This document shows positions 1-50,276 of a stretch of DNA of 64,000 bases, one piece after another. Position 1 is the stretch's first letter. Each line of letters opens with the position of its first letter. The position numbers were made by a program, and so were the translations under genes. Source of the DNA: Dehalococcoidia bacterium (GTDB lineage Bacteria; Chloroflexota; Dehalococcoidia; UBA2979); contig OZ244720.1 in assembly GCA_965219085.1 (NCBI GenBank), positions 2,752,001-2,816,000 on the forward strand. Reading direction: 5' to 3'. A model generated the notes under the pieces. That model saw only the letters and a program-made list of their open reading frames with translations, was not told the origin of the DNA and did not search any database.

Positions 1-22
1 TGGTGATGTAGCGGTAGTCCAT
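1..22 (-). CDS. 5' end of a gene running off the window (MDYRYIT...), possibly enoyl-CoA hydratase family
   Basis: AAGGAG RBS then ATG at 22 on the minus strand; only 7 codons visible. Confidence 0.4.
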
Positions 23-120
23 GGGTCTCCTTTGCTGGCTGTATCCCGGTCAGAGGTTCGTAGCAGACTCACGCCCGCGCGGCACTCGACGCACCACGGG
101 AGCGCAAGGACCAGAACGGC

Positions 121-15361: not shown

Positions 15362-15401
15362 GCGCTCCTTTATTCGCGACCGCGGGTCTTACGGCAAGCC
15401 T

Positions 15402-15513
15402 GCGGCCGGAGGCCGCATGATCGTGCCCGCGGCCGGAGGCCGCATGATCGTGCCCGCGGCCGGAGGCCGCATGATCGTGCCCGCGGCCGGAGGCCGCATG
15501 ATCGTGCCCGCGG
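15402..15513. repeat. Tandem 27-bp repeat x4 with internal palindrome
   Basis: GCGGCCGGAGGCCGCATGATCGTGCCC at 15402, 15429, 15456 and 15483, all identical. Confidence 0.95.
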
Positions 15514-15626: not shown

Positions 15627-16418
15627 ATGAGCGAGCAGCAACTCGAAGGCAAGGTCGCAATCGTGACGGGCGCGAGCCGCGGCATCGGCGAGTCGATCGC
15701 CCACTCGCTGGCGCGCGACGGCGCGAAGGTCGTCGTCGCGGCCCGCACCGAGGAGGTCACCGACCCGCGCCTCCCCGGCACCATCCACTCGGTCGCCGCG
15801 GCGATCGAGGCCGAGGGCGGCGCCGCGCTGCCCGTGGTCACGAACCTGCGCGACCCGGAGAGCATCTACGGCTGCGTCGAGCGCACCGTCGAGGAGTTCG
15901 GGCGGGTCGACATCGTCGTGAACAACGCGGCGATCCCCGTGCCGGGCGACATCGAGACGGTGCAGGACCGCCACATCGACCTGATGTGGCAGGTCGACAT
16001 GCGCGGCCCGGTGCTGATGTGCAAGGCGGCGGTGCCGCACATGAAGGCCGGGGGCGGCCACCTCATCAACATCTCCTCGAGCGCGGCGATCTTCCCCGGC
16101 CCCGGGCCGTACGACGACGATGGCATCGGCGGGCTGTTCTACGGGATGGTGAAGGCAGGGCTGGAGCGCTTCACGCAGGGCCTCGCGATAGATCTCCAGA
16201 AGTACCGCATCGCCGCCAACGTGCTGTCGCTGAACTACGTGATCCACACGCCGGGCAACATCTTCGCCGGCAACGACCCGGAGAACCCAAACCTGGACTT
16301 CGACAGTGCGGAGTGGATGGGCCGCGCGGCGGTGTGGATCAGCCGCCAGCCGGCCGAGTACACGGGCCACATCGTGTTCGACCACACGATGCGGTACTGG
16401 CTCCAGGATATCGAGTAG
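15627..16418 (+). CDS. SDR family oxidoreductase
   Basis: TGASRGIG, NNA, YGMVK; GGAGG RBS. Confidence 0.92.
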   Translation: MSEQQLEGKVAIVTGASRGIGESIAHSLARDGAKVVVAARTEEVTDPRLPGTIHSVAAAIEAEGGAALPVVTNLRDPESIYGCVERTVEEFGRVDIVVNNAAIPVPGDIETVQDRHIDLMWQVDMRGPVLMCKAAVPHMKAGGGHLINISSSAAIFPGPGPYDDDGIGGLFYGMVKAGLERFTQGLAIDLQKYRIAANVLSLNYVIHTPGNIFAGNDPENPNLDFDSAEWMGRAAVWISRQPAEYTGHIVFDHTMRYWLQDIE

Positions 16419-16591
16419 CCTCCAGCGCGCGGCGCTGCGGTCCACTGCCGGGCCTGCCCGGCGAAGCGGTTCGCCGCCCACGTCCGCGTTGATTGGGTCG
16501 CCGAAGCGCGCGATCAGCGTCTTCGCGTCCACCATCGCGCGGAGGTTCGCTCCACGGCCTTACGATGGGGGCGGACGCTTACGCGTGCCCG

Positions 16592-17437
16592 TCAACTCAT
16601 CACCGCGGTGTCGGGCTGATTGGCCCATTCGTTGAACGATCCCGCGTAGTTCGACGCCCGGTCGTAACCGAGGATCTTCAGGACGAGCGCAGCGAGACCC
16701 GCGCGCGCACCGCCCCCTCAGTACGTCGCGACAGCGACCTCAGGTGTGATTCCCTTCGCCCCCAGCAGGGTGGTGAGCGTGGTCGCGGGCTTCAACGTTC
16801 CGTCGTCGGCATCGAACAGCTCGGTCCACTCCAGGTGGATGGCCCCCGGGAGGTGCCCGAGCCGGGGCGGAGGATTGAAGCCAGGCGTTGTCCCCTCGAA
16901 CTCCCCGAGGCTGCGCACGTCCCAGAAGACCGCCTCGTCATCGTCGACCATGGCCCTTGCCTGGTCCAGCGAGCAGTAGACACCCTCGGTCAGGCGAGGC
17001 GTGAACGTTCGTGGTTCGTGGGACGCAGGGTCGGTCGAAAGCGGCAACTCCTCGCGCGTCCACTTCGTGAACCCACCGTCGAGGAAGCGGGTATCGGGGT
17101 GGCCGTAGTACAGGAATGCCCAGGCGGTCATGCCCGCCATTTGCAGGAACGCGTCGGCCGAGCCGTAGACCACGACCGAGGTGTGCTCGTCGATCCCAAA
17201 CGCCCCGGCCAGTTCGGCAAAGGCTGCGGGCTCCGGCATCTCCGGTCCAGCCCGCAGTCCCCCGAGGCCGAACCCGTTGAGGTGGACGGCGCCTGGAATG
17301 TGGCCGGCGGCGTAGTCCTCTCTAGAACGAGCATCGACCACGCGCACGGTCGGATCGGACAGGCGACTCGCGAGCCAACCGGTCTCGGCCAACAGCTCTG
17401 GATGAGGGTAGCCTCGCTCACTAACGGGAATGGACAT
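16592..17437 (-). CDS. Two-domain rhodanese/sulfurtransferase, predicted selenoprotein (Sec at codon 240 of 281)
   Basis: GHIPGA, LDGG, WDVRS, GHLPGA; in-frame TGA 16718-16720 in VATY*GGGAR, followed by LGY...NYAGSFNEW rhodanese C-terminal signature up to the stop at 16592. Confidence 0.88.
16681..16717 (-). promoter_or_regulatory. Putative bacterial SECIS element
   Basis: GGGGGCGGUGCGCGCGCG-GGUCU-CGCUGCGCUCGUCC directly 3' of the UGA folds by eye into a stem-loop; GGUCU begins 19 nt after the UGA. Confidence 0.75.
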
Positions 17438-17485
17438 GCACGGCTCCAATCGGTCTTCACTGCGGTAGCGGCACGAGTGGCCGCA

Positions 17486-17524
17486 GGGCGGCTAGAACTC
17501 GATCGGGCCGCCGGGGTCGATCAC
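17486..17524. repeat. 39-bp direct repeat, copy 1
   Basis: GGGCGGCTAGAACTCGATCGGGCCGCCGGGGTCGATCAC, identical to 18919-18957. Confidence 0.95.
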
Positions 17525-18861
17525 TCGTCGGTTTCAGGCGCGCCGATGTCCGCGGCTTCTGCTGGCGGCTCCGACTCACCTTCCTCGGTTTGTCGGGGGA
17601 GTCTGGGCGCGGGCGGCTTCCAGGCTTCGAGGTTCTGGGTGACCGTCCGGTAGAACTCGTCCAGGAGCGACGTGATGGAGCCGATGAACGATCGCGCGCC
17701 GGTTCCCCGCGCCATTCCCATGTCCCGCGTCAAGGTGACCCGGAACGCGCGAGGGGCGATTCGCCGGTCCTCGAGGAGCGCCTCGTCGGGATGCTCGGTC
17801 AGCGCGTGAAGCAAGGCTGACGTGGTGACGGATCGGGACTCAAACGACGCGTCCACGCGGAGACTGCCGGGCGCGTCAGATCGCAACTGACGCACGAGCC
17901 AGTTGATCCGCGTCCGAGGCCGCCCGTCGCCTGGGGCGTCGACCTGCAGCGACGCTGAGATAGTGCGTGTCTTCAAGTCGGCGCTGAGATTGATGTCGGC
18001 GACCGCAGCCGGCACGCGCAAGGTGCATTCGAGGACACCAGCCTCAGCCAGGGTCCTCGCCAATCGCGTCCGGCGACCGGCGACGTCGCGCCGGTCGCGG
18101 CGTGCGAGCACCTGCTGCACATCGGCGCCGAGCTCGCGGCCCAGTTGAAGGCAGAGGTAGCGGGAGAGTTCGTCCCATCGCTCGACTACATCATCGACAC
18201 CGTCGTCGCTCGGTCCAAGGGTGCCGGCTCGGGCGCTGTCGCGGATGGCCGTCCAGTGCTGCCCCATGTCCTCGAATTGCATCGCCCCGGAGCTCGGGTG
18301 CTCGAGGTATGCGATGAGTTCGGCGAGTATCCATGCCTGCTCGGGGTCGGCAACGCCGCGGTGGTCGTGCTCCATGACGGCCTCGGTGAGCAACGCTACC
18401 CACGAGATGTGGTGCAACTCGACGCGCCGCAGCTTTCGCCGGTCTACTTCAACCGGATGGTCGCCCGTTGCGGGCATGATCTGATTCGAAATGGTGACCA
18501 CCGCGTCGAAACCGTGCTCCCGGGCGGCGTCGAGATACGACTCAACCTGGGCCCGATCCAATTCGCTCGTTCCGGTCTTCACTTCGACGAGGGCCACCCA
18601 GGTGCGCCGCCCGCGGCGTACCCGGAGAAGGCCGTCGGGACGTACGACCGTCCCGTCGGCCATCTCCAGCGGAACTTCGATATAGGTCTCAACCGGCCCG
18701 GCGGGTGCGCCGAAGCGTCCCCGCAGGATCGACCTGCCGAACTCATCGACGGCCCCGAGCACGCTGAGCAGGGCGGACGTTGCGCGGGCCTCGCGCTCGC
18801 GGTCCCCTCTGATGCCCGAAGTCGGAATCAAGCGCGCAGGTAGCCAAGCCTCGGCTGTCAC
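17521..18861 (-). CDS. PD-(D/E)XK nuclease-fold protein (so-called stress response protein type)
   Basis: IEV...RPDGLL...LVEVKTG...QVESY...TISN motif order. Confidence 0.7.
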   Translation of the reverse strand: MTAEAWLPARLIPTSGIRGDREREARATSALLSVLGAVDEFGRSILRGRFGAPAGPVETYIEVPLEMADGTVVRPDGLLRVRRGRRTWVALVEVKTGTSELDRAQVESYLDAAREHGFDAVVTISNQIMPATGDHPVEVDRRKLRRVELHHISWVALLTEAVMEHDHRGVADPEQAWILAELIAYLEHPSSGAMQFEDMGQHWTAIRDSARAGTLGPSDDGVDDVVERWDELSRYLCLQLGRELGADVQQVLARRDRRDVAGRRTRLARTLAEAGVLECTLRVPAAVADINLSADLKTRTISASLQVDAPGDGRPRTRINWLVRQLRSDAPGSLRVDASFESRSVTTSALLHALTEHPDEALLEDRRIAPRAFRVTLTRDMGMARGTGARSFIGSITSLLDEFYRTVTQNLEAWKPPAPRLPRQTEEGESEPPAEAADIGAPETDE

Positions 18862-48017: not shown

Positions 48018-50276
48018 CTACCCGCACTTCGTGTACCCGCACGACCGGCACAGCAGGCACCGCTCCGCGTACCCCAGTTGCGCCCCGCAGTCCGGACACG
48101 TCAGCCCCGACGCGGTCACGACCGGCGCCCGCTGCAAGGCATCGGGATCGGCGCCTGTGTCCTCGCCGCCTTCAACGCCCGCAGATCCAAAGTGCAGCCG
48201 CAGCCAGCGGAAGATGTAGTCGAGGATGCTTGTGGCGAACGGGAGGTCCTCGTTCGCCGTCGGGCCCGCCGGCTCGAAGTGCGTGCGCTCCAGCTTCTCC
48301 GCCAGTTTGTCGAGCGGCACGCCGTACTGGAGGGCGATCGAGGTGAGGATGGCGATGGCGTCGGTCAGGCCGGAGACCGTTGAGCCTTCCTTCGAGATCT
48401 TCACGAACACCTCGCCGGGCGCTCCGTCGTCGTAGAGCCCGACGGTGATGTAGCCCTCCTGCTCGCCGACCCGGAACTTGTGGGTCACGGCCGGTCGCTC
48501 GTCAGGGAGGCGCCTGCGGCCGTCGGCTGCCCTCGCCGCCGAGGGGGCGCGCTCGCCGGTCGCGAGCACCTGCTGCGCGCGCGAGCCGTCGCGGTAGACC
48601 GTCACGCCCTTGCAGCCGATCTCGTGCGCGCGGAGGAACACCGCGCGCACGTCGTCGGGGGTGGCGGAGTGCGGGAGGTTCACGGTCTTCGAGACGGCGA
48701 GGTCGGTGTGGCGCTGGAACGCCGCCTGCATCGCGACGTGGCGCTCCCAGCCGATCTCGTGCGCGGTGGCGAAGAGCCGCCGCACGCGCTCGGGCACGGC
48801 CGCCTGCCCGGCCAGGCCCGCACCCGCCGCAAGCTCCCCGATCAGCTCGGGCGAGTGGAACCCGCCGGCGCGGGCCGCTCCGGCGAACGCCTCGGAGACC
48901 TCGTCGAGGAGCGTCCCGTCCTGCATGCGCCGCGTGTGGGCGAGCGAGTACAGCGGCTCGATGCCCGAGGAGGCGCCGGCGATGATCGCGATCGTCCCGG
49001 TCGGTGCGATGCAGGTGCGCGTCGCGTTGCGGTAGTGCGGGCCGTCGTCCGCGTAGATCGAGCGCTCCCAGTTCGGGAAGACGCCCTTTTCCGCGCCGAG
49101 CGCAGCCGAGGCTGTGTCGGCGGTGCGCGCGATGCGGCCCATGAGCTCCTCGGCGAAGTCGAGCGCTTCGTCGGAGTCGTAGGGGATGCCGGCGGCGATG
49201 AGGAGATCGTGGAACCCCATCACGCCGAGGCCGATCTTGCGGTTGCCGCGCACGGCCGCCGTGATCTCGGGCAGCGGGTACGAACCGGCGTCGATGACGT
49301 TGTCGAGGAAGCGCATGGCGAGCGTCACCGTCTCGTCGAGGGCGGCCCAGTCGACCGCGCCGGCGTCGGCGTCCCAGAAGCGCGCGACATGGATTGAGCC
49401 GAGCGTGCAGGCCTCCCACGGCAGCAGGGGCACCTCGCCGCACGGGTTCGTCGCCGCGATCGCGCCGAGCGCGGGCGTGGGGTTCGCGCGGTTCACGGTG
49501 TCGAGGAACACCATCCCGGGGTCGCCGGTCTGCCAGGCCGACCCGGCGATCTCGTCGAGCAGCGTGGCGGCGTCGGCGCTGCCGCGTGTCGCCGCGGCGT
49601 GCGGGTCGACGAGGTCGATCGAGCCGCCGCTCGCCGCGGCGTCGATGAAGGCGTCGGTGACGGCGAGCGAGAGGTTGAAGCGCTGCGCGCTGACGCCGTC
49701 GTCCTTGGCATGGACGAAGTGCCGGACGTCGGGGTGGTCGATGCGCAGGATGGCCATGTTGGCGCCGTCGCGCTTGCCACCCTGCGTGACGAGCCGCGAG
49801 ACGTCGTCGTAGTGGCGAAGCACCGAGACGGGGCCGCACGCGGCGCCGTGGGTGGTGGCGATCGGCTCGCCCTCGGCGCGCAGGATCGAGAAGTCGAAGC
49901 CCGTGCCGCCGCCCCACTTCTGGACCATCGCTGCCGCCTGCGCGGTCGACATAATCGAATCGAGTGAGTCCTCGATGGGCAGCACGAAGCAGGCGGCGAG
50001 CGTGCCGCGGTCCGTCCCGGCGTTCATCAGCGTGGGCGAGTTGGGCAGGAAGCGCAGCGCCGCCATCTCGTCGTAGAAGCGCTGCGCCCACTGCGCGCGC
50101 AGCTCCTGCGTCGCCTCGACCGAGGCGATCGACTCGGCGACGCGCGCGAGCATCTGCTCGGGCGTCTCGACGACCGCGCCGTCGTCGCCGCGCAGCAGGT
50201 AGCGGCGCTCGAGCACCGTGCGGGCGTTGTCGGTCAGGTCGATGGGGTGGGTGATGACGGGAGGGGTGGTGACCAT
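48018..50276 (-). CDS. nrdJ: Class II (adenosylcobalamin-dependent) ribonucleotide reductase with TSCPD and Zn-ribbon C-terminus
   Basis: PNSPTLMNAG, AACF, TNPCGE, ACTLGS, APTGTI, KGVTVYRDGSR, terminal CxxC pairs. Confidence 0.93.
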   Translation of the reverse strand: MVTTPPVITHPIDLTDNARTVLERRYLLRGDDGAVVETPEQMLARVAESIASVEATQELRAQWAQRFYDEMAALRFLPNSPTLMNAGTDRGTLAACFVLPIEDSLDSIMSTAQAAAMVQKWGGGTGFDFSILRAEGEPIATTHGAACGPVSVLRHYDDVSRLVTQGGKRDGANMAILRIDHPDVRHFVHAKDDGVSAQRFNLSLAVTDAFIDAAASGGSIDLVDPHAAATRGSADAATLLDEIAGSAWQTGDPGMVFLDTVNRANPTPALGAIAATNPCGEVPLLPWEACTLGSIHVARFWDADAGAVDWAALDETVTLAMRFLDNVIDAGSYPLPEITAAVRGNRKIGLGVMGFHDLLIAAGIPYDSDEALDFAEELMGRIARTADTASAALGAEKGVFPNWERSIYADDGPHYRNATRTCIAPTGTIAIIAGASSGIEPLYSLAHTRRMQDGTLLDEVSEAFAGAARAGGFHSPELIGELAAGAGLAGQAAVPERVRRLFATAHEIGWERHVAMQAAFQRHTDLAVSKTVNLPHSATPDDVRAVFLRAHEIGCKGVTVYRDGSRAQQVLATGERAPSAARAADGRRRLPDERPAVTHKFRVGEQEGYITVGLYDDGAPGEVFVKISKEGSTVSGLTDAIAILTSIALQYGVPLDKLAEKLERTHFEPAGPTANEDLPFATSILDYIFRWLRLHFGSAGVEGGEDTGADPDALQRAPVVTASGLTCPDCGAQLGYAERCLLCRSCGYTKCG

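Follow-up and report, generated by a model that had tools for sequence, protein, structure and literature searches.

Rhodanese-related sulfurtransferases that carry selenocysteine (Sec) are known from surveys and catalogues of selenoproteins. The 2005 study of the Sargasso Sea selenoproteome placed a 'Rhodanese-related sulfurtransferase', represented by 3 sequences and assigned to COG2897, among its new families (PMC1088965), and the GOS paper lists sulfurtransferase entries under COG2897 and cd01449 (PMC2398784). Catalogue tables describe a rhodanese-related sulfurtransferase with a UxxG motif (PMC9312934; PMC13188914), and BSepDB contains Dehalococcoidia assemblies with 46 and 49 selenoproteins (PMC13326102). 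As portrayed in the passages concerned, the catalogued COG2897, or SseA-type, selenoprotein combines two domains with Sec at the position of the homologues' Cys; the family also has Cys homologues and is known from environmental assemblies. These passages, gathered in a search not aimed at that question, contain no experimental work on a Sec-rhodanese, and in them a selenol at the persulfide-carrying site of a rhodanese is a prediction only.

The gene described here is a further member of this Sec-rhodanese family (COG2897, UxxG), which has been predicted since 2005, and represents no new category. The likeness to the catalogued family is one of description, drawn from architecture and motif: the protein has two rhodanese domains, its predicted Sec takes the place of the homologues' Cys, and its U-G-G-G fits UxxG. 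The original prediction for this locus correctly stated that Sec-containing rhodaneses had already been proposed computationally, a record that begins with the Sargasso Sea survey (PMC1088965). It overstated the novelty of the gene, as Sec-containing COG2897 rhodaneses with UxxG already stand in the catalogue tables cited above.

The gene lies on the minus strand of a 64,000-nucleotide stretch of DNA, hereafter the window, which corresponds to C1:2752001-2816000 in a genome consisting of a single contig of 3.306 Mb (Table 1). Its start codon, as read from the sequence, is the ATG at 17437..17435. Under translation table 11, the open reading frame (ORF) spans 16718..17449 and closes with ...VATY at the TGA at 16720..16718. 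This TGA, codon 240, is the sole one in frame within the gene. The original prediction held that the frame runs on past it, and translation of TGA as U indeed gives a protein of 281 residues, in which 41 residues are added past VATY (GGGARAGLAALVLKILGYDRASNYAGSFNEWANQPDTAVMS) before a second TGA at 16594..16592. The G+C content at third codon positions is 0.80 in the rhodanese gene and 0.87 in the long ORFs of the genome.

Table 1. Features of the predicted Sec-rhodanese locus, in window positions.
Feature	Position	Strand	Description
Complete predicted selenoprotein gene	16592..17437	minus	281-residue two-domain rhodanese, M1..S281, with U240; includes terminal TGA 16594..16592; TGA translated as U
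Likely ribosome-binding site GGAG	17444..17447	minus	Precedes the ATG at 17437 by 6 nt; read directly, putative role
N-terminal rhodanese domain	17054..17380	minus	PF00581, 68.4 bits; C1:2769054-2769380; Pfam stretch, residues 20-128
C-terminal catalytic rhodanese domain	16619..16969	minus	PF00581, 48.8 bits; C1:2768619-2768969; 1 TGA inside
UGA codon 240, predicted Sec codon	16718..16720	minus	First residue of the active-site loop U-G-G-G-A-R; aligned with the catalytic Cys of 1uar
Predicted SECIS hairpin	16680..16716	minus	+5..+41 from the U of UGA, 37 nt; RNAfold; fdhF layout
Conserved upper part of the hairpin	16687..16708	minus	+13..+34, bulge at +18
Apical loop GGUCU	16695..16699	minus	+22..+26, 18 nt past the UGA; presumed SelB contact, by analogy with fdhF

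The product has the tandem rhodanese (SseA/COG2897) architecture, as indicated by two PF00581 domains (E 1.6e-34 for the 281-residue protein), by the span of its match to NF008557 and by its predicted fold. In tandem rhodaneses, the N-terminal domain is the non-catalytic one. The AlphaFold2 model of the full-length protein, for which 16 sequences served as input, has a pLDDT of 91 and a pTM of 0.90. In this model, U240 ends the strand formed by residues 235-240, ahead of the helix at 244-255, which is the rhodanese active-site position. The 41 residues beyond the TGA contribute two helices, with a strand between them, to the catalytic domain. Consequently, a product ending at Y239 would be left without an active site. 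The model also superposes on the structures of bovine rhodanese and of M. tuberculosis SseA and CysA, and its fold matches 3hzu.

Two described enzymes, the Thermus thermophilus rhodanese (1uar) and Azotobacter vinelandii RhdA (1e0c), share the fold of the model (TM 0.84-0.89 in Foldseek; 0.87/0.89 to 1uar and 0.84/0.88 to 1e0c) and 33% sequence identity. They also share the loop pattern nucleophile-X4-Arg, and the nucleophile of the window protein aligns with the Cys of 1uar in phmmer. In contrast to these enzymes, the window protein has Sec in place of Cys, and the interior of its loop is Gly-Gly-Gly-Ala, whereas theirs is charged or polar. The claim that the TGA sits at the catalytic Cys of the active-site loop thus agrees with the alignment, in which the codon falls on the Cys of 1uar and on that of 11 homologues. 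U240-G-G-G likewise places the UxxG motif on the catalytic Cys column, as defined by 1uar and 30 aligned loci.

The top NCBIfam match is the SseA-type NF008557, which covers residues 18-280 with 107.5 bits. Because this score lies under the equivalog cut-off of 250 bits and the loop is not CGSGVT, 3-mercaptopyruvate sulfurtransferase (MST) was rejected as an identity. The loop of MST is CGSGVT. The original prediction had set the UGGGAR loop apart from that of MST, and both the sub-threshold NF008557 score and the loop pattern, which is that of the thiosulfate-type 1uar and 1e0c, agree with it. Two further families, NF041203 (rhodanese_LYCAU, CxU) and NF045694 (TsoB), combine a rhodanese domain with Sec as the window protein does. 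Membership was rejected for both, with scores of 20 bits (cut-off 115) and 15.6 bits (cut-off 805), respectively, and with differences in the position of Sec and in the motif.

The residue at the nucleophile position was compared across homologues identified in a read-through search of 60 relatives and the genome itself, which returned many matches with exactly one TGA. Among 30 aligned homologous loci, the catalytic column holds TGA in 19 and a Cys codon in 11; only Cys or Sec occurs there. The loop U-GGGAR-AG is common to the closest relatives (G004 and G015, 78% identity; G029, 69%), and the next group, at 55-57% identity, has C-NGGAR-GA. A wider scan of contigs added orthologues with 66-78% identity, titled Acidobacteriota, Myxococcales/Deltaproteobacteria, Longimicrobiales/Gemmatimonadetes and Dehalococcoidia. 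The motif Y-[U/C]-GGGAR was found in 15 of the 16 loci scanned (L060 was unmatched), 14 of them distinct, as L022 and L055 are apparently the same sequence. The Cys/TGA pairs to which the original prediction looked for support are therefore present among homologues, and pairs with GGGAR occur in the protein database too. Far from carrying TGC or TGT throughout, the close homologues with Y-[U/C]-GGGAR have TGA in 15 of 15 loci.

The sequence downstream of the TGA diverges in the manner of a translated frame. Against L022, the 42 codons of the post-TGA part include 9 with synonymous-only changes and 4 with amino-acid-changing ones, and the differences fall on codon positions 1, 2 and 3 in the numbers 3, 3 and 10. 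The 238 upstream codons include 58 of each kind. Judged from these substitutions, the post-TGA stretch is constrained as coding sequence, at least as much as the upstream part. These observations bear on the idea that the locus is a pseudogene or a sequencing error, in which a nonsense mutation or a wrong base in a Cys rhodanese has left a dead fragment of 239 residues. Standard gene calling, which closes the ORF at the TGA, would fit such a fragment, as would hairpin statistics that are not compelling alone. The idea is nonetheless extremely improbable, and we rejected it on the conservation of the TGA and of the frame beyond it. The same TGA recurs in independent assemblies, which speaks against a base-call error, and is found in all 15 motif loci, titled as four or more phyla. 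Furthermore, the same residue is the last one in 105 of the 120 nearest database proteins, the frame past the TGA is under purifying selection, and a full set of Sec machinery is present in the genome.

Public protein collections record this gene in shortened form, in line with the expectation that annotation pipelines would call it truncated. In a collection of 5.8 billion proteins, the best 120 include 105 whose last residue is the one aligned with Y239, just before the TGA residue, and the remaining 15 are full-length with Cys, so that the Sec form outnumbers the Cys form by 105 to 15 in this set. The full-length proteins comprise two that read C-GGGAR-GG (P0004, 74% identity; P0005, 70%) and 13 that read C-NGGAR-GA. 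The 105 short proteins presumably stop at a TGA, as do the 15 loci whose DNA was examined. One of the database proteins bears the name 'rhodanese-like domain-containing protein [Dehalococcoidia bacterium]'.

Decoding of UGA as Sec calls on dedicated machinery, which the original prediction expected elsewhere in the genome, having seen no selABCD in the window. No sel genes lie within the 64-kb window, and the full set was found outside it in the one-contig genome. The tRNA-Sec matches Rfam RF01852 with 73.7 bits (cut-off 47) and is called by ARAGORN as SeC with anticodon tca. The matches to selA, selB and selD are likewise above their cut-offs: selA scores 543 bits; selB (301 bits) is a 619-aa open frame about 16 kb past the end of the window; and selD (366 bits) lies at C1:475684-476619 on the plus strand. 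The selD gene has an in-frame TGA of its own, at genome position 475714, within ...CGGUAGK. On this gene content, the genome depends on selenium, and its SelD is itself a selenoprotein by the same reading of the code. A PF00384 search for a Sec-containing formate dehydrogenase gave three matches in the genome, none of them with an internal stop.

The TGA form and the machinery also travel together among relatives. selA is present in 19 of the 20 relatives' genomes that have a TGA-bearing rhodanese, the exception being G052, which is 71% complete. Conversely, 11 genomes lack a selA match, and the TGA form occurs in G052 only among them. For this count, the catalytic column was checked in all but three rows, and the second copy in the genome itself was checked as well. 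Cys forms of the same clade occur in genomes that lack a selA match.

These data also weigh on the notion that the UGA is read through without Sec, through near-cognate incorporation of Trp, Cys or Arg or some other recoding. Such read-through draws what credit it has from the assignment of the inserted residue, which is made from sequence alone, and we consider it very unlikely. The codon occupies the position of the catalytic nucleophile, where homologues have only Cys or Sec; the TGA forms co-occur with selA; and the hairpin that follows is laid out as a known SelB-binding element. Moreover, this genome uses TGA as an ordinary stop, which terminates 657 of 1516 long ORFs as well as the rhodanese gene itself. 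The same count of 657 in 1516 rules out a global reassignment of TGA.

The hairpin resembles the reference bacterial element of its kind in layout. The original prediction described a 37-nt stem-loop after the UGA, with a GGUCU apex beyond an 18-nt spacer, and likened it to the SECIS of E. coli fdhF. RNAfold folds nucleotides +5..+41 in this manner, with GGUCU at +22..+26, and the first 50 nt from the UGA have a fold energy of -22.4 kcal/mol. In this structure, a bulged C at +18 separates the 3-bp apical stem (+19..21 paired with +27..29) from a 5-bp stem beneath. For comparison, 48 nt from the codon-140 TGA of fdhF in E. coli K-12 (NC_000913.3) were folded, and the likeness proved accurate in layout. 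In both genes, the hairpin lies within the coding sequence immediately past the UGA, GGUC begins at +22, the 5' arm has a single bulged base at +18, and three base pairs make up the apical stem. The two differ in the RNAfold loop, which has 5 nt (GGUCU) in the window gene and 4 nt in fdhF, and in the bulged base, which is C in the former and U in the latter. The stem of the window gene is also much richer in G+C, with -22.4 kcal/mol over 48 nt against -14.9 kcal/mol for fdhF. The contacts of SelB in fdhF are G23 and U24 of the loop together with the bulged base.

Comparative data place this hairpin with the TGA form of the gene. It is present at all 15 orthologous TGA loci, with the GGUCU loop unchanged in 15 of 15, and was not seen at the same place in the 3 closest genomic Cys forms (L025-L027). 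Among more distant Cys forms, L045 (G034:C1:759258-760052) keeps the hairpin typical of TGA forms and has one in-frame TAG elsewhere in its match. The upper stem is near-invariant, so that there is no real covariation to score, and some orthologues have a broken lower stem. In an analysis of synonymous-site conservation across 12 orthologues, the value for the SECIS codons (0.20) differed little from that for the rest of the gene (0.26). The stretch with the SECIS was outside the 8 most conserved windows, and the whole gene is low in synonymous divergence. A scan of 16400-17000 against Rfam, at E up to 10, gave no SECIS family and four matches at chance level.

By itself, the energy of the hairpin is weak evidence. 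When the sequence was shuffled with dinucleotides preserved, z was -2.28, and 5 of 200 shuffles folded as well. When the 14 codons after the UGA were resampled with synonymous codons at the genome's codon usage, z was only -0.73, and 119 of 500 resamples were as stable. The weak resampling value arises because a Gly/Ala-rich stretch in a genome of 70% G+C folds well with any codons. Across the aligned loci, resampling gave a negative z in 17 of 19 TGA forms and a positive z in 9 of 11 Cys forms, counts that come from related, not independent, loci. The Cys forms L045 and L047 also fold well, and L047 was equalled or beaten by 1 of 500 resamples. It is thus the homologues and the machinery that make the case for Sec; the hairpin agrees with this case and lies where one would expect it. 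The position of the TGA is beyond chance, because it is conserved across many genomes.

Taken together, the locus is very probably a real Sec-encoding gene in which UGA-240 is recoded through its SECIS. SelB-GTP carrying Sec-tRNA(Sec) would bind the hairpin that starts just past UGA-240, presumably through contact with the loop. Sec would then be inserted by the ribosome in place of termination, giving the full 281-residue tandem-domain rhodanese. In this enzyme, the U240 selenol would replace the thiol of the catalytic Cys at the start of the six-residue loop U-G-G-G-A-R. What we infer of its chemistry and substrates follows the rhodaneses: attack by U240 on a donor of sulfane sulfur would give a Se-S (selenopersulfide) intermediate, from which the sulfur would be handed to a thiol or another acceptor. 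By analogy with known rhodaneses, such double-displacement sulfur transfer on U240 seems reasonably probable, though well short of assured.

The selenol could instead serve selenium handling, in which case U240 would carry a Se-Se (perselenide) adduct and pass it on, for example towards SelD, and not transfer sulfur. In vitro, selenium can be bound by rhodaneses, and some enzymes of selenium metabolism contain rhodanese domains. A role of this kind would suit a genome whose SelD appears to be a selenoprotein and which keeps two Sec-rhodanese genes, and in NCBIfam the window protein weakly resembles, below threshold, the rhodanese regions of ExtH and MnmH. We nevertheless regard it as unlikely. 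The gene is unlinked to selD, selA and selB and has no conserved neighbour; the selenium-related rhodanese families of NCBIfam score far under cut-off (42 bits where 200 are required, and 18 where 241 are required); and Cys forms of the same clade occur in genomes with no selA match. Sulfur transfer on U240 remains the preferred account of the enzyme's activity, with selenium trafficking as the less probable alternative.

The second Sec-rhodanese of the genome, at C1:1597310-1598119 on the minus strand, is 40% identical to the window protein and has the loop Y-U-QGGIRAAF. Its UGA is likewise followed by a hairpin, with the loop GUUC at +24. In the genus, the widespread type is this U-QGGIR paralogue (L032, L034, L036, L039 and L040) and not the type encoded in the window; of the 18 other genomes searched within the genus, just 2 contain the latter. 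A further sequence likeness links the window gene to selD, in which a stem-loop at +15..+28 contains the 9-mer GGGUCUCGC that is also present in the SECIS core of the window gene. In selD, GGGUCUCGC sits 6 nt nearer the UGA than in the window rhodanese.

Genes around the rhodanese encode an MFS transporter, a short-chain dehydrogenase, a 446-aa ORF, a MaoC hydratase and an acyl-CoA dehydrogenase. Across the short flanks of 16 loci, the search for conserved neighbours returned only the gene itself and ORFs overlapping it. As the neighbours are not conserved, they give no pointer to a substrate and no operon context for function. The 446-aa ORF (17521-18861) is on the same strand, 84 nt upstream of the rhodanese; it has no Pfam or PADLOC match and was not found beside the orthologues. 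Just upstream of the short-chain dehydrogenase gene, at 15398-15513, is a 27-bp tandem repeat of 4.3 copies with 98% matches, which reads as PAAGGRMIV repeats in one frame. Elsewhere in the window (49552-49649, plus strand), ARAGORN calls a 98-nt 'tRNA-???' with the four-base anticodon gtcg, which could be a spurious call or an atypical tRNA.

The U-GGGAR type is patchily distributed in the genus. Orthologues L051-L059, titled Acidobacteriota, Myxococcales, Deltaproteobacteria, Longimicrobiales and Gemmatimonadetes, have 71-78% protein identity and 75-80% DNA identity to the window gene and are as close to it as the same-genus copies are. This patchy distribution, together with unshared neighbours, 75-80% DNA identity to orthologues titled as other phyla and the dominance of the Sec form in its clade, suggests horizontal spread of the U-GGGAR rhodanese along with its built-in SECIS. 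A bolder and more tentative reading, rather unlikely on present data, sees the U-GGGAR rhodanese as a self-contained, horizontally mobile selenoprotein cassette with its own fdhF-type SECIS. If it were true, SelB proteins from distant phyla would read a single SECIS layout, and a persulfide-carrying site with selenium would confer a strong, transferable advantage, possibly in selenium trafficking.

The likeness of the hairpin to that of fdhF means that the window gene may be a practical candidate for selenoprotein expression in E. coli. The gain is mainly one of annotation: this gene, the second Sec-rhodanese and selD of the same genome are all shortened by ordinary gene callers. Since 105 of the 120 nearest entries are shortened in the same way, protein databases lack the catalytic half of an enzyme that is widespread in the environment.
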